The position numbers were made by a program, and so were the translations under genes. The notes under the pieces were generated by a model that was not told where the DNA came from, did no database searches, and worked only from the letters and a program-made list of their open reading frames with translations. From Desulfuromonas sp. SDB (GTDB taxonomy: Bacteria > SDB-A), in assembly GCA_001412365.1 (NCBI GenBank), contig LKUE01000319.1, forward strand, positions 2,264-66,263: 64,000 nt of DNA, given 5' to 3'. Shown here in pieces: positions 31,998 through 50,278 of the stretch (position 1 is the stretch's first letter; every line of letters begins with the position of its first letter).

Positions 31998-32753
31998 ATG
32001 AACCTTGATCTTTTAGAAAATATTTTACAGCAAGTGAGAGCAGGAAAATTACCGGTGGATAAAGCATTACAGGAATTATCAACATGGGGATACTTGGATC
32101 TTGGTTTTGCTAAATTAGATTTAGACAGACAGAGAAGAGTGGGCTTTCCGGAAGTGGTTTACGGCAAAGGTAAAACGGTTGATCAGATAATTGAAATAGT
32201 TAAATCGCTTTATCAACATCATTCCATGGCAGTGGTTACCAAAGTTAATGAAGATATTGCCAGTTCACTAACTTCCTGCCAGCTTCCAGTGAAATATTAC
32301 CATCAGGCAAAAATAATTTTAGTGGGTGAACCTAGACCGGTAAAATCCCCTCCTGCGGTGGCGGTAATTACCGGGGGAACTGCAGATATACCTGTAGCTG
32401 AGGAAGCAGCAGTTATTTGTGAAATTTATGGGAATGAAGTGGTGAGAATATATGACGCAGGAGTTGCTGGCATTCACCGTTTAATCAATAATTTAGAAAA
32501 GATAAACCAGGCGGGAATTATCATTGTGGTAGCGGGGATGGAAGGGGCATTGGGCAGCATTGTGGGCGGTCTGACTCCCCGTCCGGTAATTGCAGTTCCC
32601 ACCAGTGTGGGATACGGAGCTAATTTTCATGGATTAGCTGCTCTGTTAACTATGCTGAATTCCTGTGCTCCGGGAGTGGCGGTAGTAAATATTGACAATG
32701 GTTTCGGAGCGGGAGTTTTTGCAGCCATGGTCAATCAAGGATTAGTTAAATGA
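31998..32753 (+). CDS. larB: pyridinium-3,5-biscarboxylic acid mononucleotide synthase LarB (PurE-like)
   Basis: C-terminal PurE/AIR-carboxylase-like domain (VAVITGGTADIPVAEEA...IIVVAGMEGALGSIVGG) plus the LarB N-terminal domain. Confidence 0.7.
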   Translation: MNLDLLENILQQVRAGKLPVDKALQELSTWGYLDLGFAKLDLDRQRRVGFPEVVYGKGKTVDQIIEIVKSLYQHHSMAVVTKVNEDIASSLTSCQLPVKYYHQAKIILVGEPRPVKSPPAVAVITGGTADIPVAEEAAVICEIYGNEVVRIYDAGVAGIHRLINNLEKINQAGIIIVVAGMEGALGSIVGGLTPRPVIAVPTSVGYGANFHGLAALLTMLNSCAPGVAVVNIDNGFGAGVFAAMVNQGLVK

Positions 32754-33937
32754 TTAAGGGGTATTTTCACTGTTTCTCCGGAGTTAGCGGAGATATGCTG
32801 GTGGGAGCTTTTCTAGATTCAGGGGTGGAATTAACTGAGTTGCAATCCGAATTATCTAAACTAAAACTGACCGGATATCGAATTTATTCAGAAAAGGTGC
32901 TGAAAAATGGACTGGGGGGCACTAAGTTTAAAGTAGAAGCGGCACAGGATCATCCCTTTCGGAATTTAAATGATATTCTTAATTTAATAGAACAAAGCGG
33001 TTTATCCAAGTCAGTTAAGCAAAAATCAGTAAAGACCTTTGAACTTCTGGGGGAAATAGAGTCGGGAATTCATGGTTGTGATATCGGAAAAATTCATTTT
33101 CATGAAATTGGAGCAGTGGATTCAATTATTGATATAGTAAGTGTTTTTATCTGTGATCAACTTTCAGGCATTGATCAGTATTACTGTTCAAAAATACATA
33201 TTGGCACCGGTTTCACCAATTGTGATCATGGTCTTATTCCCCTGCCCTCTCCCGCCACCTCTGCTTTATTGAGGGGACTGCCCACTTTTAGCCTGGGCAT
33301 ACCGGGGGAATTAGCTACTCCCACCGGCGCCGCCCTGTTGAAAATCTTAGTGGATGAGTTTGACCGTTATCCTGCCATGATTATAAAGGATACCGGTTAC
33401 GGAGCAGGTTCCCGGGATTTAAAAACCCCCAATTTATTGAGATTGATAATTGGTGAATCAAGCGAAGATATGGCAGGCAATGGTTTTCAGACCGATCAGA
33501 TTGTTTTAGTCCAGGCAAATATTGACGATATGAATCCTGAATACTACCACTTGGTTATGGATAAGCTGGAGCAAGCAGGGACAGTGGATGTATTTCTGGA
33601 ACAGGTGATCATGAAAAATTCCCGTCCCGGAGTGATCTTGAATGTATTAGTAGAAGAACAAAATCTACTGCCGGTGGGTAATGTAATTCTCCGGGAAACG
33701 TCCACTTTTGGATTGAGATTCCAAAAGCTAAATAGATTTAAGCTGGTTAGAAAAATCAAAGAAGTGAAAACTGATTATGGTCCCATAAAAGTCAAACTAG
33801 GTTTAATTGGAGATGATCTTATTAAAATTGCGCCTGAATACCGGGACTGCAGACGAATTTCAATTGAACATAATATACCTTTAGATGAAGTTTATCAATT
33901 GGCTAAAAGTAAATTTAACCAGGAACATAAGATATGA
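32750..33937 (+). CDS. larC: nickel insertion protein LarC (DUF111)
   Basis: N-terminal HCFSGVSGDMLVGAFLDSG matches the LarC/DUF111 signature; 395 aa single-polypeptide form; 4-nt overlap with larB. Confidence 0.75.
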   Translation: MIKGYFHCFSGVSGDMLVGAFLDSGVELTELQSELSKLKLTGYRIYSEKVLKNGLGGTKFKVEAAQDHPFRNLNDILNLIEQSGLSKSVKQKSVKTFELLGEIESGIHGCDIGKIHFHEIGAVDSIIDIVSVFICDQLSGIDQYYCSKIHIGTGFTNCDHGLIPLPSPATSALLRGLPTFSLGIPGELATPTGAALLKILVDEFDRYPAMIIKDTGYGAGSRDLKTPNLLRLIIGESSEDMAGNGFQTDQIVLVQANIDDMNPEYYHLVMDKLEQAGTVDVFLEQVIMKNSRPGVILNVLVEEQNLLPVGNVILRETSTFGLRFQKLNRFKLVRKIKEVKTDYGPIKVKLGLIGDDLIKIAPEYRDCRRISIEHNIPLDEVYQLAKSKFNQEHKI

Positions 33938-37646: not shown

Positions 37647-40607
37647 TTAGTGGTAATATATTATTCCCTTGCCCTCTCTGCCCTGTAGCAATATATGCAG
37701 GGGATTTGATAATTTTAGGCATGTGGTATACCTGCCTGTTTTCTGAGGCAAATGTTGTTTTATCCAGTCCCAATTGATAAAGCTTTTATGATCTTGGTAA
37801 TCAATGGATAAATATCCGATATTCATCGAAGTTATATTGTGGAAGAAATGAGAACCTAAAGAGGGGTCTACTTGAAAATCTTCCAGTCCGTATTCGACAA
37901 TGGCTTTTGCTTTGGAGATTTGATTCCACTCAACCGGAATTCCCAGCCATTGATCCCTGCTTCCCCACCGCCCCGGACCAATTAACAAATAGTTAAAAGA
38001 ATTTTGTTTAGCCAGGTCATTGAAAGATTCAATCTCGGTGGCGATTTCCTGAGTTTTGGATTTATCGAATTTTTGGGGTTCAATATAGATTACATGGAAA
38101 ATATTTTTTATTTCCCCATTTCCTAGAGAACGGTTGGATTTCAGAATTACTTTTTCAGGGTTTATTTGGCTTAAGTCAATTTTTAATTCAGAAATTTTCC
38201 TCATAAAAGGTTTAACTTGAAGCAGGAAAAAAACTGGCTGGGGTTGAGCAGAAAGATCAACTGCGAATTCTATCTCCACCGGGGTTCCCAAGGCAAATTT
38301 CAAGATATCCAGTGTTTTCTGGATTATTTCAGCCAGAGGAAAAGTCTGATATTTTAAAATATAGGGAAAATTTGCCACCAAAGGGCCACGTTTATTTAAC
38401 CCGGGAACTAATCTGCCGTTATCAGCATCCCAAGTGGAAAGACAGCTTTGAAAATCCTGAAGTTCTAAATTCCGGTCCAGCGGAATGGTGGTCAGGGTAG
38501 CTTGTTCTCCAGCCAGAAGGTCAGGATGATGATCTGATAGATTTAATGCAATCAGCTCTTTCTGGGTATGGGAAAGCAGATCTATGGAGGTTTCAAACTC
38601 AATTTTGGGATGAGCTGGACAGAAGCGGTAAGCTTGACCGCCTTCCACCACATAGAATCCCAGACCCAGGGCAATAACTGATATCCCCTCTTCCGGTTTG
38701 ATGTGGGAGAGGGGATAGTAATTATAAGATTGGGCAATACCTGAAATATGAGGATAAAATTTTTGTTGATAGTTTTTCCCCGCCACTTCTTGAATTATCA
38801 CTGCCATGCGTTCTTCTTCAATTTTATAGTTAACCGCATCGAAATAACTCCGGGCAATTTTTGAATAAACAGAAGCATAAACCAGTTTTATCGCATTCAT
38901 CAGCTGCTGTAATCTTTGTTCTGGTTGGGGATGATGGTTGGGGATGATATAGGTGTTGTAAAGTCCGGAAAAAGGCTGAGCTAAGGAGTCTTCAAATAAT
39001 CCCGATGATCTGATAGCCAGAGGGTAGTTGATTTTTTCCAGGTAAATTTTCAAGTTTTCAATTAGAGATGATGGCAGGGAGTGCTTTATAAATTCTGAAC
39101 GGAGATTGAAAATATCATCTTCATAAGCGGCAAATTCCAGAAGATGGTTATCTCCCAAAAATTGCTCAAAAGCTTCGGTGCCGATAATTACTGTATTGGG
39201 GATGGTTATCTCCACCCCGGAAATGTTTTTCAGCAGAGAACTATGGTGTATTAAATTATTTAAAAAAGCAATCCCTCTCCCCTTGCCCCCTAAAGAACCT
39301 CCGGCTAAACGGGAAATATTGATTCGGTCATGAATGTATCGGTTATCGAAGTTGATGATTTTGCCTTTGGTTTTTTCGTACTCCACCTCCCTGCAGGTTT
39401 TCAGCAGATGCTCCCGGATCTGCTTTACTGAACTGAAATCAGAAACTTTCGATTTCTGAAGCTTTTGGGCAATTTTAATTTCACCACGAGCCATCAGCCA
39501 GGATGAAAAATGATTTTGCTCTCCATGATAAATCAACGAATCATCAGCTATGGTTTCCAGCAATGCCTTGAACTCGGGTAGATTTCTGGCCCGGGCTAAT
39601 TCATTTCCCCGGGCATCTTTAAACACAAAATCACCAAAGCCAAGATTGGAAATTATAAAATTTTTCAGTTCTGATTCCAGCATCTCAGAATTTTTATCTA
39701 GAAATGAAGCGTGGAGATTATCCGCATAGATTCTGTTTTGGGGATTATATGATTGCATGAGAACAGGAAGGTCAGGAAGCAGATATTTTACTTCCTTGAT
39801 TAGTTTCATTCCAGCATCTTCTCTGATTTCCTGTTGAAAAGGGAACTTAAAGTCGGAAATGACTGCTACCAGATAGTCTTGGTAATTATTTAGAATTTTT
39901 ATCGCCTGGGGGTAATTGTCGCAAAGCAGTATCTTTGGTCTGGTTCTCATTCTGAGTAATTTTTTTGATTCATCCAGATTTTCTTCTTTAATCAATCTTT
40001 GAGTTTGTTTGATGATTTCAGTGTAGAGCAGGGGGAGGTATCGGGAATAATAACGGATGGAATCTTCAACCACTAAAATAACCCGGACCATTCCCACTTC
40101 GGTGTCATGGTGGACATTTTTTAAATCTTCTATGTACTTTACTATCGCTAGAAAAATTTTCGGTTCTCCGCTCCATACAAAAATCCGGTCAATTTCAGGA
40201 TTTTCCCTGCACCATTGCTGGCATAGGGTGATATCACTATGGTCATTCAACAAAAGCACAATGGGTAGTTGGGGATATTGATTTCTAATTTTTTGGCTGT
40301 ATTCAAAAGGGGAGAATTCATCTATTCTCATGGTGAGAATTACCAAGTCATATTGTTTTTGGCACAACATCTGTATTGCTTCTTCACCTGAGCTGGCACT
40401 GGTGATTTTGGGTGCGCTGGACAGGTTCAGCTGGTAGTATTCTCCAAAAATTTTTTCAGTGAGCATATCTTCCTGCTCAATTATGTAAGCGTCATATAAA
40501 GTTGAAACCAGCAGGATGTCTCGAATTTTAAAAGGCATTAAATCGTGGTAAATCTCTCTTTGTAATTTGTATTCACTGAGATAAGACTGATAAATCTGTT
40601 TGGACAA
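37647..40607 (-). CDS. multidomain signalling protein: pseudo-receiver + receiver (REC) + PPDK_N / PEP-synthase-type ATP-grasp nucleotide-binding domain + unknown C-terminal domain
   Basis: REC-like blocks at residues ~25-130 (DLVILT, acidic pocket degenerate) and ~175-290 (ILVVEDS...VAVISDFKFP...PVLMQS, with the Asp and Ser/Thr conserved). PPDK_N motifs GGSLGGKGRGIAFL, LAIRSSGLFEDS, MAVIIQEV, SGIAQS, LGLGFYVVEG. No TSHAA phospho-His swivel motif was found. Confidence 0.6.
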   Translation of the reverse strand: MSKQIYQSYLSEYKLQREIYHDLMPFKIRDILLVSTLYDAYIIEQEDMLTEKIFGEYYQLNLSSAPKITSASSGEEAIQMLCQKQYDLVILTMRIDEFSPFEYSQKIRNQYPQLPIVLLLNDHSDITLCQQWCRENPEIDRIFVWSGEPKIFLAIVKYIEDLKNVHHDTEVGMVRVILVVEDSIRYYSRYLPLLYTEIIKQTQRLIKEENLDESKKLLRMRTRPKILLCDNYPQAIKILNNYQDYLVAVISDFKFPFQQEIREDAGMKLIKEVKYLLPDLPVLMQSYNPQNRIYADNLHASFLDKNSEMLESELKNFIISNLGFGDFVFKDARGNELARARNLPEFKALLETIADDSLIYHGEQNHFSSWLMARGEIKIAQKLQKSKVSDFSSVKQIREHLLKTCREVEYEKTKGKIINFDNRYIHDRINISRLAGGSLGGKGRGIAFLNNLIHHSSLLKNISGVEITIPNTVIIGTEAFEQFLGDNHLLEFAAYEDDIFNLRSEFIKHSLPSSLIENLKIYLEKINYPLAIRSSGLFEDSLAQPFSGLYNTYIIPNHHPQPEQRLQQLMNAIKLVYASVYSKIARSYFDAVNYKIEEERMAVIIQEVAGKNYQQKFYPHISGIAQSYNYYPLSHIKPEEGISVIALGLGFYVVEGGQAYRFCPAHPKIEFETSIDLLSHTQKELIALNLSDHHPDLLAGEQATLTTIPLDRNLELQDFQSCLSTWDADNGRLVPGLNKRGPLVANFPYILKYQTFPLAEIIQKTLDILKFALGTPVEIEFAVDLSAQPQPVFFLLQVKPFMRKISELKIDLSQINPEKVILKSNRSLGNGEIKNIFHVIYIEPQKFDKSKTQEIATEIESFNDLAKQNSFNYLLIGPGRWGSRDQWLGIPVEWNQISKAKAIVEYGLEDFQVDPSLGSHFFHNITSMNIGYLSIDYQDHKSFINWDWIKQHLPQKTGRYTTCLKLSNPLHILLQGREGKGIIYYH

Positions 40608-40696: not shown

Positions 40697-41773
40697 ATGA
40701 ATAAAGTGCTGTTTTTTTTTACTCAAGGTTATTATGTTCTGGTCCGACTGACCAACTCAACCTATTTTTTTGATTTATTATACCGGTTGTTGAAAGATCC
40801 TTTTCAGATTAATCAGTCCTGCTACGAAATGAAAAAATTCAATAAGATGTTGGAATCTATTCCTCCCGGTGATTATCGCCATTGCCTGGATATTGGCTGC
40901 GGAACTGGTGTGCTTACCTCTAAAATACTTTCCATCTCCTCAAAGGTTACCGGAATAGACCTTTCTCCCCGGGCTATAAATGTAGCCAGGCATAAATATA
41001 AACAGGAATCTCGATTAACCTTTATCTCAGCGGATATATGCTCATATCAAAGTGATTCAAGCTATGATTTATTTATCTGCTCCGAAGTTCTCTACTATCT
41101 ACAGCCCAAAGAGTTAACTAAGGCAATTCAGCAAATAAAAAAACTGACGGATAAAAGGGGGGTACTTGTTTTTGTAGGTAGAGCAGATGATAACTATGTA
41201 AGCAGGCAGCTTGAAAAGTATTTTTCGTTGATAGACAAATTCATCTGCCCGGCTCAATTCACCTATAGAGGGCTTGGACTGAACATTTCCAGGCCATTTG
41301 GTATTTTTATTTACCGAATATCAAACCGGGGAGTGGATGCTGATTTGTCAATAAGATTTTATAAATCCAGGGATTATACCCAGTTGATCCGGTTATGGAA
41401 ACAATGCAAATTACCCCTTAAACCGAAGGGCAGAGATAGCCGGGAAGAACTGGACCGTCAGTCAAAATTATCCACCTCGATATTTCTGGTAGCTTATACA
41501 GGAGAAGAATTGGCGGGATCGGTTTTTGCTACCGATGATGGCAGGAAAGGTTGGATAAACAGATTGGCGGTTAATAAAAAATACCGTAAAAGAGGCATTG
41601 CCAGTAAATTACTGAAAACTGCAGAAAATAAGCTTGCTGAAAAGGGAATTAAAATGAATGCCTGTTTAATTGAATCAGATAACCTTAACTCTAAACTATT
41701 TTTTAAGGAAAGGGGATACCGGGAAGTCAAAGGAATCTCCTATTTTACCAAAAAAAAGAATAGGGATATTTGA
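40697..41773 (+). CDS. fusion protein: class I SAM-dependent methyltransferase (N) + GNAT N-acetyltransferase (C)
   Basis: MTase motif I LDIGCGTGVLT; GNAT motif A (WINRLAVNKKYRKRGIASKLL). The true start may be an internal Met near 40829. Confidence 0.6.
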   Translation: MNKVLFFFTQGYYVLVRLTNSTYFFDLLYRLLKDPFQINQSCYEMKKFNKMLESIPPGDYRHCLDIGCGTGVLTSKILSISSKVTGIDLSPRAINVARHKYKQESRLTFISADICSYQSDSSYDLFICSEVLYYLQPKELTKAIQQIKKLTDKRGVLVFVGRADDNYVSRQLEKYFSLIDKFICPAQFTYRGLGLNISRPFGIFIYRISNRGVDADLSIRFYKSRDYTQLIRLWKQCKLPLKPKGRDSREELDRQSKLSTSIFLVAYTGEELAGSVFATDDGRKGWINRLAVNKKYRKRGIASKLLKTAENKLAEKGIKMNACLIESDNLNSKLFFKERGYREVKGISYFTKKKNRDI

Positions 41774-41780
41774 GGCGGAA

Positions 41781-42431
41781 ATGAAAAAATTAAATGAAAA
41801 GCTGATAATATTTGATCTGGATGGAACTTTATACCGCTCAGAAACTTCATTTTTTCCGGCAGTTCAAAGATTTTTTGATGAATATGCCAGCCCTTCGCAG
41901 ACTGCAAGAATATTCAAAGATAAATTTGTAAATAAGTTTATCGGAGAACCAGAGCATGTATTTGTCAACTGGTTATCTGCTATGTTTCCCCATCAGAATC
42001 CGGTTAAGATGAAAGAACAATTTGAAGAATATGAATTATCCGCGGTACAAAGTTCAGGTCAATTATATCCGGGAGTCATGGAAACCCTGGATTGGCTGAA
42101 TGTTAATGATTACGATATTTACCTTTGTTCAAATGCCACTTTAAATTACCTTGAGGCGATTATCAATAAATTTAATTTATCCCAATATTTCAAAGCACTG
42201 TACATCCCTCAAACCAAACAGCACACCAAAAAGATGATGATGAAAGAAATTAAGGAAAAGTCCGGCAAGCAAAGTGGTTACGCAGTGGGAGACAGATTTC
42301 ACGATTTGCAGGCAGCCCTGGCTAACCAGTTATTTTTTTTCGGAGCAGCTTACGGATATGCCCCTGAGGAAATGAAACCAGCCCATAAGTTGTTGTCAGA
42401 AGTAAAACAGATTATTGATACTTTGAAATAA
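41781..42431 (+). CDS. HAD-superfamily hydrolase
   Basis: HAD motif I IIFDLDGTLY. The ORF-track start at 41670 overlaps the upstream gene by 100 nt; the ATG at 41781 has a GAGG RBS. Confidence 0.7.
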   Translation: MKKLNEKLIIFDLDGTLYRSETSFFPAVQRFFDEYASPSQTARIFKDKFVNKFIGEPEHVFVNWLSAMFPHQNPVKMKEQFEEYELSAVQSSGQLYPGVMETLDWLNVNDYDIYLCSNATLNYLEAIINKFNLSQYFKALYIPQTKQHTKKMMMKEIKEKSGKQSGYAVGDRFHDLQAALANQLFFFGAAYGYAPEEMKPAHKLLSEVKQIIDTLK

Positions 42432-42460
42432 TTCCCCAGCAGTGATAATATGCATAAATA

Positions 42461-43621
42461 ATGAATTTTAAGGAAATAATTAAATTAAGGCATGATCTCC
42501 ATTCTCTAGCAGAAATTTCCGGCAGGGAAAAACAAACTGCACAAAAAGTTAAACAGTTTCTGGAACCATTAAGACCTCTACACATTGTTGAAAACATTGG
42601 AGGATATGGGCTGGCTGCAATTTTTGATTCAGGAAAGTCCGGAAGTACTTATATGTTCAGAGCGGAGTTAGATGCCCTGCCTCTGGAGGAGGAAATTGAT
42701 ATTGATTATGCCAGCTTAAATCCTAAAGTTTCTCATAAATGCGGACATGATGGACATATGGCTATATTGCTGGGATTAGCTGGTATTATAAATTCCCGCA
42801 GGGACTTATGGAAGGGAAAAGTCATTTTGATTTTTCAACCTGCTGAAGAAACCGGTACCGGCGCGGATTTAGTTTGGTCAGATGTAAAATTTAAATTGCT
42901 GAAACCGGATTTTGTATTTGCTCTTCATAATCTGCCTGGATATCCTGTTAACAGTATTATTATCAAAACCGGTTTATTCTGTTCAGCTTCCCAAGGGTTA
43001 GTGGTCAAGTTGAAAGGCCGGACTTCCCATGCGGGACATCCTGAACAGGGCAACAGCCCCCTTCCTGCCATGGTTAATCTTATAACTTTCCTCCAGGGAT
43101 TGAAAGACAGAGTAATTGGCTATAACCGCTCAGCCCTGGTTACGGTTATTCATCTGCAGCTGGGAGAAAGAGCTTTTGGCACCAATCCCGGGGAAGGTCA
43201 GGTGATGATTACTTTACGGGCTCATCAACAGCAGGATTTAGATTTAATGAAATCAGCAATTGCCCAAAAAGTTCGTAAATTAGCTGAAATTTACGATTTG
43301 AGTTGTTCTTTGGATTGGGTGGAATACTTCCCCCCGGTGCACAATGATGAATTATGTGTTGATAAGGTCCATCAAGCAGCTCATCAATTGAAGTTAAACA
43401 TCATAACCCAGGAACAGCCCTTTGCCTGGACTGAAGATTTTTCTCATTTCACTAGGAATATCCCTGGAGTTCTGTTTGGATTGGGAGCAGGAGAAGACTA
43501 TCCTCCCCTACATCATCGAAATTACGATTTTCCCGATTCACTTATTGAAACGGGTATTAACCTCTGGTGGAATATAATCTTGAATGGGGAATTATCATCC
43601 TCAACAGAAATAGCTAGATGA
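42461..43621 (+). CDS. M20D-family amidohydrolase (aminoacylase / hippurate hydrolase-like)
   Basis: HKCGHDGH metal-binding motif and ~390 aa length typical of M20D. Confidence 0.75.
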   Translation: MNFKEIIKLRHDLHSLAEISGREKQTAQKVKQFLEPLRPLHIVENIGGYGLAAIFDSGKSGSTYMFRAELDALPLEEEIDIDYASLNPKVSHKCGHDGHMAILLGLAGIINSRRDLWKGKVILIFQPAEETGTGADLVWSDVKFKLLKPDFVFALHNLPGYPVNSIIIKTGLFCSASQGLVVKLKGRTSHAGHPEQGNSPLPAMVNLITFLQGLKDRVIGYNRSALVTVIHLQLGERAFGTNPGEGQVMITLRAHQQQDLDLMKSAIAQKVRKLAEIYDLSCSLDWVEYFPPVHNDELCVDKVHQAAHQLKLNIITQEQPFAWTEDFSHFTRNIPGVLFGLGAGEDYPPLHHRNYDFPDSLIETGINLWWNIILNGELSSSTEIAR

Positions 43622-43622
43622 T

Positions 43623-44780
43623 ATGAAGTCCAGTTCTTATATTGAAATCAGCCGTTCTGCCTATAAAAAAAATATCCGGTACCTTTCCCGAAGAATTGGC
43701 AAACAGGTCAAATTTGTGTCTGTAGTAAAGGGTAACGCCTACGGACATGGGCTAGAAACCTTTGTCCCCATGGCTGAACAAACCGGAATAGATTACTTTG
43801 CAGTTTTTGACACCGCAGAGGCGGAAATTGTAAACAGGGTAAAAAAACCTCAAACAGATTTAATGATTACCGGATTCATTGACCACCAGGATCTTTCCTG
43901 GGTAATTGAAAATAATATATCGTTTTATGTGTTCAATGTGGAAAGATTGAAAGAAGCAATTGAAGTAGCGCAAAATATCTCCATGCCTGCCAGGATTCAT
44001 CTTGAACTGGAAACAGGACTTTACCGTACGGGTATAGATAATGAGAATTTCCAACAAGTTATCCAGTTGTTAAAAATAAATAAATCCCACCTGTTTTTAG
44101 AAGGAGTTTGTACTCATTTTGCAGGAGCGGAAAGCATCTCAAATTATTATAGAATTATAAACCAAATACAGAGTTTTAATAATCTGGTTGAACTGTTAAA
44201 ATACCACGGGCTTCAGTTCCAATACCGACACTGTGCCTGTTCAGCAGCAGCATTAACTTATCCCCAAACCATTATGGATCTGGTCAGAATTGGAATAGCT
44301 CAATACGGATTTTGGCCCAGTCAGGAAACAAAAATTCACAATCAGCTTTCCAAGGGAGTTGAGTTTAAAAAGGATCCGTTAAGACAGATATTGTCTTGGA
44401 AATCCAAAGTGATGGATATTAAGAATGTCCCCCCGGGTAAATTTGTAAGTTACAGCAATTCTTTTTTTTCCTCTCGAAATTTAATAATTGCTTCGGTTCC
44501 GGTGGGATATACTCATGGATTCAACCGCAGTTTAAGCAATAGGGGTAAGGTTTTGATAAGAGGAAAATTTGCCCCGGTAGTGGGCTTGGTTAACATGAAT
44601 ATGTTTCTGGTGGATGTTACCCATATCCCCTTCTGTCACCCTGGAGATGAGGTGGTGTTGATAGGCGCTCAGGGTAAAAGAAAAATAACAGTGAGCTCTT
44701 TTCAGGAAATAACTAACCACCTGAACTATGAATTGTTAAGTCACCTTCCCTCCATCATCCCCCGAAAGATTATTGAATAG
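43623..44780 (+). CDS. alr: alanine racemase
   Basis: PLP-lysine motif SVVKGNAYGHG and the C-terminal beta domain. Confidence 0.88.
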   Translation: MKSSSYIEISRSAYKKNIRYLSRRIGKQVKFVSVVKGNAYGHGLETFVPMAEQTGIDYFAVFDTAEAEIVNRVKKPQTDLMITGFIDHQDLSWVIENNISFYVFNVERLKEAIEVAQNISMPARIHLELETGLYRTGIDNENFQQVIQLLKINKSHLFLEGVCTHFAGAESISNYYRIINQIQSFNNLVELLKYHGLQFQYRHCACSAAALTYPQTIMDLVRIGIAQYGFWPSQETKIHNQLSKGVEFKKDPLRQILSWKSKVMDIKNVPPGKFVSYSNSFFSSRNLIIASVPVGYTHGFNRSLSNRGKVLIRGKFAPVVGLVNMNMFLVDVTHIPFCHPGDEVVLIGAQGKRKITVSSFQEITNHLNYELLSHLPSIIPRKIIE

Positions 44781-44836
44781 TAAACCAGTTTAAATTAAAA
44801 TAGAGGTAACTTAGGAACAGTAAAAAAAACTGTAAA

Positions 44837-45172
44837 ATGGAGAAAATTATGGAAGACTATGACCGGAAATATCAAAAGGCGAGAAGAAGAGTGGAAGAAA
44901 TTAAATCTTTTTATTTTCACTTGTTGATATTTGTTCTAGTAAACACAGGATTAGTCATTTTAAATTATTTTACTTCTCGAGGTAATTGGTGGTTTTACTG
45001 GCCCCTATTAGGATGGGGAGTAGGTATTGTCGCTCATGCTTTCTCTGTTTTCGGGCTGGGCAAATTTCTGGGACCGGAGTGGGAAGAAAAGAAAATCAAT
45101 GAAATTATAGAGAAAATGAATAAGCCCAGTGAAACAACTCAGAGTACAGATGAAGAAGATTTATCCCCCTGA
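44837..45172 (+). CDS. 2TM-domain (PF13239-like) small membrane protein
   Basis: Charged N-terminus, then two TM helices with WW/W-rich FYWPLLGWGVG and a C-terminal acidic tail. Confidence 0.45.
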   Translation: MEKIMEDYDRKYQKARRRVEEIKSFYFHLLIFVLVNTGLVILNYFTSRGNWWFYWPLLGWGVGIVAHAFSVFGLGKFLGPEWEEKKINEIIEKMNKPSETTQSTDEEDLSP

Positions 45173-45181
45173 TCGGCTCTT

Positions 45182-46615
45182 ATGACTGGTTCAGAAGATC
45201 TTTCCTCTTCCAAACATAAAATATTTATAAATTTATATCAAAAATTAGGTGATAACCGTCAGTTGGTGAGAGTAGAACCTCTTACTCCTTCCGGCTCCTC
45301 CCGGGAATACTTCAGGATTACCAGCGGAAAGGACAGGGCAATAGGAATGTATAACCCCGATGTGTCCGAAAACATGGCTTTCCAATATTTAACTGATGAA
45401 TTTGCCGCTTGCCGATTAAAAGTACCCCGGATTCTGATTAGTTACAAAAATCAATATTACTTACTGGAAGATCTGGGAGATATGACCTTGTTTGATTTTA
45501 TAAGAGGAAACAATTTTAATTCCACAGTAGTAGACTATCTAAAAATCTGCGTTCAGCAGTTATTGGAATTTCAAGTCAGGGCAGGATTAAAACTGGACTT
45601 TTCCCGATGTTATCCCCAATCAAAATTTGATCAGGAAGCCATGTTAATGGATTTAAATTATTTCAAATATTATTTTTTGAAATTGAAAATCCCCCATTTA
45701 AATGAACATATCCTGGACGGGGATTTTAATTTGTTCAGTAGATATTTGTTGCAGGCTCCGGGGAATTTTTTCATGTATCGGGACTTTCAATCCCGGAATA
45801 TTATGATTGTTGATGAACAACTATATTTCATAGATTTTCAGGGGGGAAGGCAGGGACCTCTTCAGTATGATCTAGGATCTCTGCTTTTCCAGGCTAGAGC
45901 AGAAATTCCGGATAATATAAGACAGCAGATAATGAACTTCTATCTGACTCAACTGGATCAATATAACCTGGTAAATTGTTCAAAGTTCACCGATTACTAC
46001 TACGACTTTGTTTTAATTAGAATATTTCAGACTTTAGGAGCATATGGATTTAGAGGATTAATTCAACAAAAACCTCACTTCATCAAGAGCATTCCCCTGG
46101 CTTTGAAAAATTTAGATGAAGTTTTAGCTAAAACGGTTATTCCCCTCAAGTGTAAATATCTTTATAAATTGCTGCTGCAATTACTAGAAAATGAACAGAA
46201 ATTTCAGGGTTATTCTGATAAAAAATTAAAACTAACTATCTACAGTTTTGCTTATGCTTCGGGAATACCAACAGATAAACAGGGTCACGGAGGAGGCTTT
46301 GTATTTGACTGCCGCTGCCTGGATAATCCGGGTAAAATCAAGAAATATGCTGATTTAACCGGAAAATCAAAATCAGTTCAGGATTTTTTGCAAAGCCGTC
46401 CTGAAGTGATAAGGTGGTTGAACTCAGCATTTGACATTGTAGATCAAGCAGTTAATACTTATCAGCAAAGAAGTTTTAACTCACTAACCGTCTGTTTTGG
46501 TTGTACCGGCGGAAGGCACCGTTCAGTTTTTTGTGCGGAAAAGCTAAGGCAACATCTTATGGACAAATTTGATATAAACCTGGATTTAATCCATTCGGTT
46601 ATCGGAGCAACATGA
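45182..46615 (+). CDS. APH-fold sugar anomeric kinase (AmgK-like) fused to a RapZ C-terminal domain
   Basis: N-terminal ~330 aa carry phosphotransferase-family motifs (catalytic loop YRDFQSRNIMI, DFG-like FIDFQGG). The C-terminal ~140 aa align by eye to the E. coli RapZ C-domain (SFAYASGIPTD / FDCRCLDNP / LTGKSKSVQDFL / SLTVCFGCTGGRHRSVFCAEKL against SFGFKHGIPID / FDVRFLPNP / LTGLDKPVAAFL / [22 protein letters not shown]). Confidence 0.65.
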   Translation: MTGSEDLSSSKHKIFINLYQKLGDNRQLVRVEPLTPSGSSREYFRITSGKDRAIGMYNPDVSENMAFQYLTDEFAACRLKVPRILISYKNQYYLLEDLGDMTLFDFIRGNNFNSTVVDYLKICVQQLLEFQVRAGLKLDFSRCYPQSKFDQEAMLMDLNYFKYYFLKLKIPHLNEHILDGDFNLFSRYLLQAPGNFFMYRDFQSRNIMIVDEQLYFIDFQGGRQGPLQYDLGSLLFQARAEIPDNIRQQIMNFYLTQLDQYNLVNCSKFTDYYYDFVLIRIFQTLGAYGFRGLIQQKPHFIKSIPLALKNLDEVLAKTVIPLKCKYLYKLLLQLLENEQKFQGYSDKKLKLTIYSFAYASGIPTDKQGHGGGFVFDCRCLDNPGKIKKYADLTGKSKSVQDFLQSRPEVIRWLNSAFDIVDQAVNTYQQRSFNSLTVCFGCTGGRHRSVFCAEKLRQHLMDKFDINLDLIHSVIGAT

Positions 46616-47337
46616 AAGCGATGATTTTAGCTGCGGGTAAAGGAACTCGCCTGATGCCCCTTACCGAGTTCATCCCCAAAGCCTTGGTTAAAATTGGGGA
46701 TAAACCAATGTTGGAATTAGTTATTAAAAGGCTAATTTACTACGGATTTAATGAAATTATCATCAATGTCCATCAGTATTCTGATCAAATTAAAGAATTT
46801 ATAGATAGAAACAACCGTTTTGATATTGAAATTGCCATTTCTGAAGAAAGTCAGAAATTATTGGGAACGGGAGGAGGAATAAAGCAAGCTTCCTGGTTTT
46901 TCAATGACCATCAGCCATTCATGGTTCACAATGTAGATGTTTTTTCCAATATCAATTTGAATAAATTATTTCAAGACCATTTAAACCATCAATGCCTTGC
47001 CACCTTGGCGGTTAAGAAAAGAACCACCAAGACCGGGAGATATTTAATAGCAGATGATGAAAATTACCTCTGCGGTTGGAAAAATATTAAAACCTGTCAG
47101 GAAAAGATTCCCCGCAAGCCCCGTTCAATTTATCAGGAATTAGCGTTCAGCGGTATTCAAGTTATTGATCCGAAAATTTTCAGCCTGATGGATACCGGTA
47201 AGTTTTCAATTTTAGATACTTATCTTTCCCTGTGCAAAGATTATGACCTCAGGGTTTATAATCACCGGAATTCTTTCTGGATGGATTTAGGTACACCTGA
47301 CAGTATCACCCGGGCAGAAAAATTTCTGGCGGGATGA
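46612..47337 (+). CDS. sugar-1-phosphate nucleotidyltransferase (MurU / mannose-1-P guanylyltransferase-like)
   Basis: MILAAGKGTRLMPLT...PKALV NTP-transferase N-terminus; 241 aa; ATGA overlap with the upstream kinase gene. Confidence 0.7.
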   Translation: MKAMILAAGKGTRLMPLTEFIPKALVKIGDKPMLELVIKRLIYYGFNEIIINVHQYSDQIKEFIDRNNRFDIEIAISEESQKLLGTGGGIKQASWFFNDHQPFMVHNVDVFSNINLNKLFQDHLNHQCLATLAVKKRTTKTGRYLIADDENYLCGWKNIKTCQEKIPRKPRSIYQELAFSGIQVIDPKIFSLMDTGKFSILDTYLSLCKDYDLRVYNHRNSFWMDLGTPDSITRAEKFLAG

Positions 47338-48723
47338 TCATTTCTGTTTAAACTGTTGATCTAAATTAACCACTGCTTGAGCGATGATGTTGGTTAATTT
47401 GATTAAATTTTCAATTTTAATGAATTCATTTTTTTGATGAGCTAGCTTGGGCTGTCCGGGAAAGGATGAACCAAAAGCCACCGTGTTTTTAAATGCCCTG
47501 GCATAAGTTCCTCCTCCAATTGCTAAAGGAGGAGAATGGTCACCGGTTATTTCCCGGTAAGTGTTCAATAAACTTTTAACTAAAACTGAATCCCGGTCAA
47601 CATGCAGTCCGGGCACTCCTCTTTGAATTGTTGCGTTGAAACCGGAAGGAAGGCGGGAATTAATTTCAGATAAAATAATAGAGGGATCAATCCCCACCGG
47701 AGAACGAATATCCAGTTCAATTTGATAATGGGGGGGGGTGAATTTCAGTATGCCGGGGTTAATAGTTAATTTGCCTGAGAAATTTTCATGAGCTATATTG
47801 AGTTTCTTTCCCCCAGGGTCATTGGCTAGAAAATTTTGGTAAAATTCTATAATCTGATATCCGGGATCCTGGTGATCAATTAAATTAATAAGAATTTCAT
47901 TCAGTTTAGTAATGGCATTCACCCCTTCTTCAGGAGTACTGCCGTGGGCAGATTTTCCTCTTGTTGATATTTTAATTTCATTTTTGTCCAGGCAAATATC
48001 AACTTCATTTTTTTGAAGGGCTTTAATATTATTTATCTTTTCCACCAGGGATGATTGTTTTACTAAAGCTGCTTGAGCCTGATCAGGGACCATATTAACT
48101 GCAGCTCCTCCCTGCATGCTGAGTAACAAAGAGGAATCAGTTTCACTTTGAATAAGGATTCGGATAATTTCTTTTTCTGCATAAATTAAAGGGAATTGAG
48201 CATCAGGAGTTATTCCATAGTCCGGTAATTGATCATGTTCACGGTAATAGTCAACTCCTCCCCAACCTAATTCTTCATTGGTACCGAATATTATCCTCAG
48301 CCTGCCGTTAACCTTGATAGAAGAGTGCTTGATTGCAGCTAAAGCATGTATGGAGGCAATGGCAGGACCTTTGTCATCTTCGGTTCCTCTTCCATATATT
48401 TTGTCCCCTACCAGCTTGCCCTCAAAGGGAGGATAGTCCCAGTTTTCACCGGCAGGAACCACATCAAGATGAACTAAAATTACTCCTAAAGGTTTTCCCT
48501 GGCCAATTTCCGCCCATCCGTAATAGCCCTTATTAATAAAAGTATTTAATCCCAGCTGTTTGGAAATCTGAATAGCCAGTTGTAAACAGCGCTGAATATC
48601 TTTCCCAAAGGGGGCTTCCTCACTGGATTCTCCATTGACGCTGGGAACTTTAATTATATCAACTAAATGATTTACAATTTGCTGCTGATTACGGTTAATA
48701 TAATCATTTATCTCATTGTTCAT
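47338..48723 (-). CDS. M20-family dipeptidase (PepV/Sapep-like)
   Basis: RGTEDDKGPAIASIHAL and HLDVVPAG metal-binding motifs; ~460 aa. Confidence 0.75.
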   Translation of the reverse strand: MNNEINDYINRNQQQIVNHLVDIIKVPSVNGESSEEAPFGKDIQRCLQLAIQISKQLGLNTFINKGYYGWAEIGQGKPLGVILVHLDVVPAGENWDYPPFEGKLVGDKIYGRGTEDDKGPAIASIHALAAIKHSSIKVNGRLRIIFGTNEELGWGGVDYYREHDQLPDYGITPDAQFPLIYAEKEIIRILIQSETDSSLLLSMQGGAAVNMVPDQAQAALVKQSSLVEKINNIKALQKNEVDICLDKNEIKISTRGKSAHGSTPEEGVNAITKLNEILINLIDHQDPGYQIIEFYQNFLANDPGGKKLNIAHENFSGKLTINPGILKFTPPHYQIELDIRSPVGIDPSIILSEINSRLPSGFNATIQRGVPGLHVDRDSVLVKSLLNTYREITGDHSPPLAIGGGTYARAFKNTVAFGSSFPGQPKLAHQKNEFIKIENLIKLTNIIAQAVVNLDQQFKQK

Positions 48724-48760: not shown

Positions 48761-50278
48761 TTAGTCTTTAACCGGAAGTACTCCACCTTCCCAGTTTGAA
48801 ATTTCCTGATTATCATTAATACTCCAGATTTTCAAATCATCCCCGTACATAGTTGAATCTTCCACCACTTCAATGGATAAGTTATCGGTTCGGGACAGCT
48901 TATGGAAAAAACCATCCAGATGGTAGGAAATAAAATTTGCTAATTCTTTACTGCACCTGATTTGGATGGATTTGTTCTGTATTTTATTGGAAATAGATCT
49001 TAACCACCGTTGCAGAGAGCTGGTGATAAAATGCTCGGCAAATAAAAATCCTGAAGATTGACAATAGGGACATTTTCTCTGAAGGCTTTTCAATATGGAC
49101 GGACCGGTTCGTTTTCTTGTCATCTCCAGGAGACCAAAATCAGAGATGGGGGAGGTTATGTAACTGGCTTTATCCTTAGCTAACTGGCGGTCTAATTCCG
49201 CCTTCACTGCTTTTTTATGGTCATACTGCTGCATATCAATGAAATCAATGACAATTAATCCTCCCGTATTTCTTAACCTTAACTGACGGGCAATTTCCCT
49301 GGCTGCGGCAATATTAGTGTTGTAAGCCATATCTTCGGGACTTAAATTAGAAGGCGATTTTCCGCTGTTTACATCAATGGAAATAAGTGCTTCAGTTTCT
49401 TCGATGATAATATATGCTCCTGAGGATAATTCAACGTAGGGTGAAAACAACTTGGCGATTTCATCTTCAATTCCATAGTATTCAAATAAAGGAATCTCTT
49501 CCCGGTGATAGGTAATTTTATCTTTTAACTGTTTTGATCCTGATCGGGTTTTCAGATAGCTTAGTATTTTCCGGTAAATCTCTTTGCTGTCAGTTACCAC
49601 CTCATCTATGGTGCTGTTAAATAAATCACGGATAATTTTTATTACCGGTTCTTCTTCTTTGTGCAGAAGATAAGGCGCAGAATGATTTTTTGCCGCCTTT
49701 TCCATTTCCTTCCAGGAGGATTTTAAATCTTTAAGATCTTCGGCAATTTCCATTTCAGTTCTGAATTTTGATTCAGTTCTGAGGATCAGACCGAATTTTT
49801 CATTTTGAAGCTTGTTGCCAATTTTCTTTAACCGTTTTTTTTCATTTCTATCTTTAATTTTTTTGGAAATGCCGATAAATTTTCTCCCCGGCATCAATAC
49901 CAGGTATCTTCCGGGAATGGAAATAAAGGAAGTTGCCCGGGGACCCTTTTTCCCTAAAGGAGATTTAGTTATCTGGATGAAAATTTCCTGTCCTGATTCC
50001 AATTTGAGTTTACCGCTGTCAACATTTTTTTCAAAGTCCGCGTATTTGCTGATCATTTCGGTTAAAGGCAGAAAAGCTGCTTTTTCAAGTCCTATGTCCA
50101 CGAAAGCGGCATTCAATCCTGAACTGACCTGGGTCACCACCCCTTTATAAATATCTCCCACTACTTTTTTGTCATCAATTCTTTCTACATTAATTTCCAC
50201 TAGTTTTCCGCTTTCGATAACTGCGATTCTTAACTCTTGACCAGTGGAATTGATGTAAATTCCATTATTTTTATTCAT
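48761..50278 (-). CDS. rng: ribonuclease G (RNase E/G family)
   Basis: N-terminal S1 domain, then the RNase E/G catalytic domain (GGLIVIDFIDM, Zn-link-like CPYCQSSG). Confidence 0.88.
   Translation of the reverse strand: MNKNNGIYINSTGQELRIAVIESGKLVEINVERIDDKKVVGDIYKGVVTQVSSGLNAAFVDIGLEKAAFLPLTEMISKYADFEKNVDSGKLKLESGQEIFIQITKSPLGKKGPRATSFISIPGRYLVLMPGRKFIGISKKIKDRNEKKRLKKIGNKLQNEKFGLILRTESKFRTEMEIAEDLKDLKSSWKEMEKAAKNHSAPYLLHKEEEPVIKIIRDLFNSTIDEVVTDSKEIYRKILSYLKTRSGSKQLKDKITYHREEIPLFEYYGIEDEIAKLFSPYVELSSGAYIIIEETEALISIDVNSGKSPSNLSPEDMAYNTNIAAAREIARQLRLRNTGGLIVIDFIDMQQYDHKKAVKAELDRQLAKDKASYITSPISDFGLLEMTRKRTGPSILKSLQRKCPYCQSSGFLFAEHFITSSLQRWLRSISNKIQNKSIQIRCSKELANFISYHLDGFFHKLSRTDNLSIEVVEDSTMYGDDLKIWSINDNQEISNWEGGVLPVKD

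Follow-up and report, generated by a model that had tools for sequence, protein, structure and literature searches.

A RapZ C-terminal-like domain fused to an AmgK-like kinase and encoded next to a MurU-like nucleotidyltransferase

Why does a kinase carry the C-terminal domain (CTD) of the RNase adaptor RapZ? The question is raised by two genes of contig LKUE01000319.1 (assembly GCA_001412365.1, Desulfuromonas sp. SDB), of which we analysed a stretch of 64,000 nucleotides, positions 2,264 to 66,263 of the forward strand. This stretch is called the window, and coordinates count from its first letter. A preliminary description had read the first gene as an AmgK-like kinase fused to a RapZ CTD, and the second as a MurU-like nucleotidyltransferase. 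Pfam matches, motifs, and the gene overlap support this interpretation at the level of domains. The fusion probably links cell-wall sugar recycling to the sensing of phosphorylated sugars, not to RNA. The features of the gene pair, all on the + strand, are as follows.

45182..46615, +, gene of the fusion protein, an open reading frame (ORF) of 477 residues with an APH-fold kinase and a RapZ C-terminal-like domain
45269..46186, +, kinase domain, residues ~30-335 (APH / protein-kinase-like fold, AmgK-like)
45776..45799, +, catalytic loop YRDFQSRN, residues 199-206, found in all 38 aligned members
45830..45850, +, IDFQGGR, residues 217-223, likewise found in all 38 aligned members
46187..46228, +, linker between the two domains, residues 336-349
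46229..46594, +, RapZ C-terminal-like domain, residues 350-471
46283..46315, +, residues G368-R378 (GHGGGFVFDCR), a Gly-rich loop followed by a strand, placed by aligning the domain with E. coli RapZ
46502..46525, +, anion-binding loop C441-T-G-G-R-H-R-S448, equivalent of E. coli RapZ C247-S254
46612..46615, +, ATGA overlap of the kinase and transferase genes, read directly from the sequence
46612..47337, +, gene of a MurU-like sugar-1-phosphate nucleotidyltransferase, an ORF of 241 residues (PF00483)

The gene pair is as first described, an ORF of 477 residues followed by one of about 240 residues (241) with a 4-nt overlap. The first gene stops with the TGA at 46613-46615, which shares two letters with the start codon of the second, the ATG at 46612-46614. 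The motifs quoted from the translation are also in place (YRDFQSRN at 199-206, IDFQGGR at 217-223, and CTGGRHRS at 441-448). A hypothetical protein of equal length, from a metagenome-assembled genome (MAG) labelled Desulfuromonas sp. SDB, matches the fusion protein with 100% identity. Both genes are conserved over their full length in thousands of database proteins, indicating that they are real genes rather than chance ORFs or an assembly artefact. A mis-assembly or frameshift joining two genes was considered and is ruled out by the occurrence of the same ~475-residue architecture in thousands of independent sequences. The AlphaFold2 (AF2) model of the fusion protein has a mean predicted local distance difference test (pLDDT) score of 89.7. 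In an alignment of 38 members of the fusion family, on which all residue counts below are based, invariant positions make up 20.5% of the RapZ-like half and 20.3% of the kinase half. The linker that joins the two domains is poorly conserved, with 0 of 14 positions invariant and a pLDDT below 50 at residues 341-345.

The N-terminal ~330 residues had been assigned to an APH-fold kinase. In accordance, the Pfam APH profile PF01636 matches residues 35-258 (E 9.6e-11, 42.3 bits, cut-off 23.2). At E <= 0.01, the only NCBIfam kinase models that match the window protein are two curated AmgK models of proteobacterial type, NF045759 (57.5 bits) and NF045698 (31.8 bits). The same two models are the top kinase matches (39-79 bits) of eight relatives from different lineages, whose few other kinase matches have E values of ~1e-4 or weaker. 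The nearest solved structure to the kinase half is 3CSV. Most of the 3CSV sequence, reconstructed from its alignment with the window protein, scores 247.8 bits (E 1.9e-73) on NF045698, indicating that the nearest structure is itself an AmgK-family protein. Among the named kinase families in NCBIfam, the window kinase half therefore groups with AmgK and is closer to it than to any other named APH-fold family.

The motifs YRDFQSRN and IDFQGGR, together with an N-lobe motif SGSxRxYxR, are present in all 38 aligned members, and 3CSV carries the related motif SSRRYQR. By analogy with the APH/Brenner motif, we take Asp201 and Asn206 of YRDFQSRN to be the catalytic residues. IDFQGGR is presumed, also by analogy, to be the metal-binding Asp motif, equivalent to DFG. 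The scores remain below the AmgK equivalog cut-offs (57.5 versus 550 bits for NF045759, and 31.8 versus 500 bits for NF045698). By its sequence, the kinase domain is AmgK-like, not an AmgK equivalog.

The second protein is covered over its full length by the NTP_transferase family (PF00483, E 2.3e-34), as anticipated for a nucleotidyltransferase of the sugar-1-phosphate type. A MurU model, NF045761, ranks first among its 42 NCBIfam matches (132.8 bits, cut-off 250), and a second MurU model, NF045697, gives 97.6 bits (cut-off 370), so that neither MurU equivalog cut-off is reached. The best match in the PDB is MurU of P. putida (4Y7T, 6e-22), and the third is MurU of P. aeruginosa (8HHD, 6e-19). 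The 241-residue protein is thus closest to MurU and represents a minimal NTP_transferase of ~230 residues.

The two proteins resemble the AmgK-MurU pair of Pseudomonas putida and P. aeruginosa in gene order, with an APH-fold kinase gene followed by a small NTP_transferase gene, in their best named matches, in the nearest kinase structure, and in the conserved catalytic motifs. They differ from that pair in belonging to a distant subfamily, with scores far under the equivalog cut-offs. The fusion protein also has an extra RapZ CTD of ~130 residues; the two AmgK models have 324 and 360 positions, and Legionella AmgK is ~38 kDa. Because both proteins score far below the equivalog cut-offs, their substrate is only inferred, and the AmgK-MurU arrangement proposed at first stands as gene order and best named matches. 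The pair might act on something other than an amino sugar of the cell wall, in the manner of a LicA/LicC-like choline kinase and cytidylyltransferase or of a surface-glycan sugar-1-kinase and transferase. We regard this as unlikely. According to the literature, Bacteroidetes have orthologues of AmgK/MurU, and the pair from Tannerella forsythia is functional in E. coli. If T. forsythia AmgK belongs to the fused family, activity as a kinase has been demonstrated already, which leaves just the extra domain to be explained.

The fusion is not unique to the window genome, being common in Bacteroidota and related phyla. Two protein searches, the second seeded with a Paludibacter member, each gave at least 8000 candidates. 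All 240 listed matches are ~475 residues long and carry PF22740, the RapZ C-terminal domain, and nearly all carry a precomputed APH match too. The matches listed for the Paludibacter-seeded search include unnamed metagenomic relatives. In contigs of one genome per species, at least 587 relatives are confirmed. Lineages and neighbours were taken from the best 80 of these, 77 of which are informative for the position of the transferase gene. The best 80 are mainly Bacteroidota (Bacteroidales, Prolixibacteraceae, Marinilabiliales-type genera, Cytophagales, Saprospiraceae, and Chitinophagales), Ignavibacteria/Melioribacteraceae, and Calditrichota, with a few labelled Marinimicrobia, Delongbacteria, Elusimicrobia, Lentisphaeria, or Terriglobia. 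The match reaches the end of the RapZ-like domain in 80/80. The preliminary description had proposed to check whether the fusion is conserved across the clade; it is present in species-representative genomes of several phyla. In 46 of the 77 informative loci, the kinase gene is followed directly by a MurU-like gene on the same strand, and the two ORFs overlap by 4 nt in 8 related loci. When the ORFs around the 80 loci are clustered, no neighbour other than the MurU-like gene recurs widely, and none of the others occurs in more than 10 loci.

The last ~140 residues of the fusion protein had been aligned to the CTD of RapZ, and profile searches place them in that family. PF22740 matches residues 350-468 with 108.8 bits (E 2.6e-31, cut-off 27). 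The full-length RapZ equivalog model NF003828 is matched at positions 150-271 of 278 and its cut-off is not reached (96.7 versus 244 bits); eight relatives score 102-132 bits on it. The domain adopts the RapZ-CTD fold and is nearly superposable on the CTD of E. coli RapZ (YhbJ; 33% identity, 1.4 Å), the RNase adaptor and sensor of glucosamine-6-phosphate (GlcN6P). In RapZ, H190, T248, G249, H252, and R253 form the sulphate/malonate pocket, to which the essential C247 lies close (PMC5737377, PMC9841335), and dimerisation of the CTD requires F181 and D182 (PMC5737377). The isolated CTD binds GlcN6P with a dissociation constant of 10 nM.

The equivalents of C247, T248, G249, H252, and R253 (C441, T442, G443, H446, and R447) are invariant in 38/38 members of the fusion family, as is the whole CTGGRHRS loop, C441-S448. 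In the AF2 model, this loop connects a strand (434-441) to a helix (447-462). F375 and D376, which correspond to the dimer residues F181 and D182, are likewise invariant, and the motif GGG(F/Y/H)(V/I)FD(C/S)R is present in all members. In total, 25 of the 122 positions of the RapZ-like domain are invariant, with D365, D376, C377, R378, and R430 as further invariant polar residues. Of the pocket residues, C247, T248, G249, H252, and R253 are thus kept and H190 is replaced by Gly. At the level of sequence and model, the C-terminal domain is shown to have a bona fide RapZ-CTD fold that keeps a pocket of the phosphate/GlcN6P type and the dimerisation residues.

RapZ is an RNA-binding protein, and the C-terminal domain of the fusion could have retained an RNA-adaptor role, binding a regulatory RNA and handing it to RNase E/G, whereby sugar salvage would be coupled to post-transcriptional control. 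The homology to the RNA-binding CTD points in this direction, as do the invariant equivalent of R184 and the residues K170 and R196 (E. coli numbering), which are basic in most family members. However, both are Ala in the window protein, and RNA binding by RapZ also needs surface residues such as K170. In addition, most members of the family have Glu in place of K194 and Gln in place of K251, R238 is replaced by Phe, and H190 is lost. RNA binding further requires K270, K281, R282, and K283 in a basic tail of 19 residues (PMC5737377, PMC7073468). This tail is absent from all 38 proteins, which end 4-13 residues past the domain (H471), mostly with acidic residues; the tail of the window protein, SVIGAT, has no K or R. 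The P-loop N-terminal domain, which is needed for RNase E-directed cleavage (PMC5737377), is missing too. The Walker A motif G-x4-G-K-[ST] is found in 0/38 members, and the N-terminal half has the unrelated APH fold, in agreement with the earlier statement that a kinase replaces the P-loop domain.

E. coli RapZ works with RNase E, and an RNase E/G gene lies 1.4 kb downstream of the gene pair in the window. This proximity is probably a coincidence, because it is seen in 0/80 related loci. A GlmZ-like small RNA or a glmS riboswitch had been suggested as a check; an Rfam scan of the 64-kb window finds no GlmY, GlmZ, or glmS ribozyme, nor any other RNA family. According to Khan et al., RapZ homologues outside Enterobacteriaceae have a conserved metabolite site and lack the RNA-binding region, which is limited to that family (PMC7073468), and the residue pattern of the fusion family matches this statement. 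Taken together, the RNase-adaptor parts of E. coli RapZ (the P-loop N-terminal domain, the basic RNA-binding tail, and H190) are shown by the alignment to be missing, and we consider a retained RNA-adaptor role very improbable. Of the amino-sugar-phosphate/RNA-binding domain that was proposed at first, the metabolite pocket is mostly kept and the RNA-binding parts are not.

The RapZ homologues outside Enterobacteriaceae, such as Bacillus subtilis YvcJ, can also be compared with the fusion. By published description, they share with the fusion the conserved metabolite pocket, the absence of the enterobacterial tail, and a link to amino-sugar and cell-envelope metabolism (PMC7073468). They differ in that they keep the P-loop NTPase N-terminal domain and have no sugar kinase attached.

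The architecture is recognised automatically by databases, but the only names given to members of the family are "phosphotransferase", "aminoglycoside/choline kinase family phosphotransferase", "RapZ C-terminal domain-containing protein", or "RNase adapter RapZ". The last label is used by RefSeq/GenBank for some members, for example WP_245915653.1 (Mangrovibacterium marinum), P0053, P0086, and P0181. It looks over-annotated, because these proteins are without the P-loop N-terminal domain and the RNA-binding tail and reach 97-132 bits on the RapZ model versus a cut-off of 244. The label is probably wrong.

The domain could also be a ligand-free module for oligomerisation or scaffolding that dimerises or tetramerises the kinase. 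The RapZ CTD forms dimers on its own (PMC5737377), and the invariant equivalents of F181 and D182 fit such a module. However, the anion-pocket residues are dispensable for folding and dimerisation, and they are invariant in 38/38 members along with several other polar residues. We therefore give the scaffold explanation a small share of the probability.

The invariant pocket could alternatively be a second active site. The pattern (H/V)Cx5R(S/T) is the sequence signature of Cys-phosphatase P-loops. CTGGxHRS fits the C-x5-R-(S/T) form of this loop, and C441-x5-R447-S448 is invariant and lies at the strand-loop-helix junction of the model. The domain would then be a Cys-dependent phosphatase or phosphotransfer site that acts on a sugar 6-phosphate, and not a sensor. 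For example, it could convert N-acetylmuramic acid 6-phosphate (MurNAc-6P) to N-acetylmuramic acid (MurNAc), the MupP step of Pseudomonas, which would make the fusion a bifunctional enzyme shifting phosphate from C6 to C1. A number of invariant residues like that of the domain is typical of active sites, and further polar residues are among the invariant positions. In E. coli RapZ, the C247S substitution abolishes activity, GlcN6P soaked into CTD crystals looks "chemically transformed", and the authors suggest "a specialised catalytic function" (PMC9841335). On the other hand, the literature consulted demonstrates no catalytic activity of a RapZ CTD, and the fold is reported to be like that of 6-phosphofructokinase, not like that of protein tyrosine phosphatases (PMC5737377). 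MupP is a HAD enzyme (PMC5371407), and the gene string of the window contains a separate gene of that class, HAD phosphoglycolate-phosphatase-like, although it is not a recurrent neighbour of the kinase in other loci. A catalytic role is thus a minor candidate.

The RapZ CTD is reported to resemble the fructose-6-phosphate-binding subdomain of 6-phosphofructokinase (PMC5737377), and in both that enzyme and the fusion a domain of sugar-phosphate type is paired with a phosphotransfer domain. In a broader and quite unlikely version of the catalytic idea, the RapZ C-terminal fold would at root be a kinase-partnered enzyme or substrate-binding module rather than an RNA-binding one, its P-loop partner having been swapped for an APH-fold kinase and its C-x5-R-S loop being a second active site. 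If so, a single polypeptide, replacing MupP, would supply the MurU-like enzyme with a 1-phosphate made from MurNAc-6P or another sugar 6-phosphate related to it, and canonical RapZ/YvcJ proteins throughout bacteria would be predicted to have an undiscovered enzymatic activity on small molecules.

On balance, we favour the view that the two genes form a salvage module for sugar activation, of the AmgK/MurU type, with the RapZ CTD as a metabolite sensor on the kinase. What the analysis shows is the arrangement of the domains, the conservation of catalytic and pocket residues, the operon link to a MurU-like transferase, and the loss of the parts specific to RapZ as an adaptor. The substrate of the APH-fold domain would be an amino sugar, most probably MurNAc and/or N-acetylglucosamine, phosphorylated at its anomeric hydroxyl. 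The downstream enzyme would combine the sugar-1-phosphate with a nucleoside triphosphate, probably UTP, to a nucleotide sugar for cell-wall synthesis. The RapZ-like domain may dimerise the enzyme and bind a phosphorylated small molecule, either an amino-sugar phosphate or a nucleotide sugar. Ligand binding would then tune the kinase activity to the state of the amino-sugar pool, the sensor being attached straight to the enzyme in place of an RNA circuit.

Several observations weigh against this explanation. The AmgK and MurU scores (57.5 versus 550 bits and 132.8 versus 250 bits) are far under the curated equivalog cut-offs. At the position of the pocket residue H190, the window protein has G384, and 37/38 members have Gly. 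Beside the H190 position, the family has a specific Gly-rich insertion of five residues compared with E. coli RapZ (46283-46297, residues 368-372), GxGGG, with three invariant glycines, directly before the FVFDCR strand that carries the dimer residues. This insertion could reshape or enlarge the ligand pocket; because of it and the loss of H190, GlcN6P may not be the ligand. The orientation of the two domains is uncertain (predicted template modelling score 0.69, low-confidence linker), which precludes proposing an allosteric path. In 30 of the 77 loci, the transferase gene is not found within ~6 kb. No other peptidoglycan-recycling gene (murQ, anmK, nagZ, or ampG) recurs near the kinase gene in the 80 loci, and Pfam scans of the window genes find none of the four in the window.

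In the window, the gene pair is the last of seven tightly spaced, co-directional genes (40697-47337, +). Its neighbours are as follows.

40697-41773, +, methyltransferase-GNAT fusion
41781-42431, +, HAD phosphoglycolate-phosphatase-like protein, with no match reaching a specific family cut-off
42461-43621, +, M20D amidohydrolase
43623-44780, +, alanine racemase, above the equivalog cut-off
44837-45172, +, 2TM-domain protein
47338-48723, -, PepV/Sapep-type M20 dipeptidase, converging on the transferase gene
48761-50278, -, RNase E/G family gene (S1 and RNase_E_G), 1.4 kb from the fusion/transferase pair

The stop codons of the transferase and M20 dipeptidase genes abut (47337/47338), leaving no room for an intergenic terminator. 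The methyltransferase-GNAT fusion, the HAD phosphatase, the alanine racemase, the M20 peptidases, the 2TM-domain protein, and RNase E/G show no recurrence near the kinase in the 80 loci. Pfam scans find no glmS gene in the window, the rest of which is housekeeping. A protein of 986 residues (37647-40607, -) has an unusual-looking architecture, with a weak response-regulator receiver match and a PEP-utilising PPDK_N domain. At 31998-33937 (+), adjacent genes of an AIR-carboxylase-like (LarB-type) and a nickel-insertion (LarC-type) domain suggest a cluster for nickel-pincer cofactor biosynthesis, unrelated to the fusion. The G+C content of the window is 38-41%, and the public record is labelled Desulfuromonas sp. 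SDB. Taxonomically labelled relatives share 44-50% identity with the fusion protein and belong to Bacteroidota, Ignavibacteria, and Calditrichota; one unlabelled relative shares 84%. The Desulfuromonas label of the source MAG may be wrong.

Searches of the accessible literature found no paper that mentions AmgK together with RapZ or describes the fusion, which appears not to have been studied previously. The gene pair is apparently an undescribed, widespread variant of the AmgK/MurU module that carries a metabolite-binding domain of RapZ type. The preliminary description had proposed a new way of coupling salvage to sensing. The arrangement is apparently undescribed as proposed, but with at least 587 relatives it is not unique to this genome, and the coupling itself is an inference. 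Salvage of the AmgK/MurU type underlies intrinsic fosfomycin resistance and labelling with MurNAc probes, and Bacteroidota versions of the pathway are in use as tools.

RapZ is known as an enterobacterial adaptor of small RNAs, yet conservation of its C-terminal pocket extends well outside the range of species with GlmY and GlmZ. The fusion family is large, with the pocket intact, the RNA-binding parts missing, a kinase of amino-sugar type, and usually a MurU-like gene in the operon. This is independent comparative evidence that the ancestral job of the domain concerns phosphorylated amino sugars. The fusion also provides a simple enzyme system, in which ligand binding by the domain could be read out as kinase activity.

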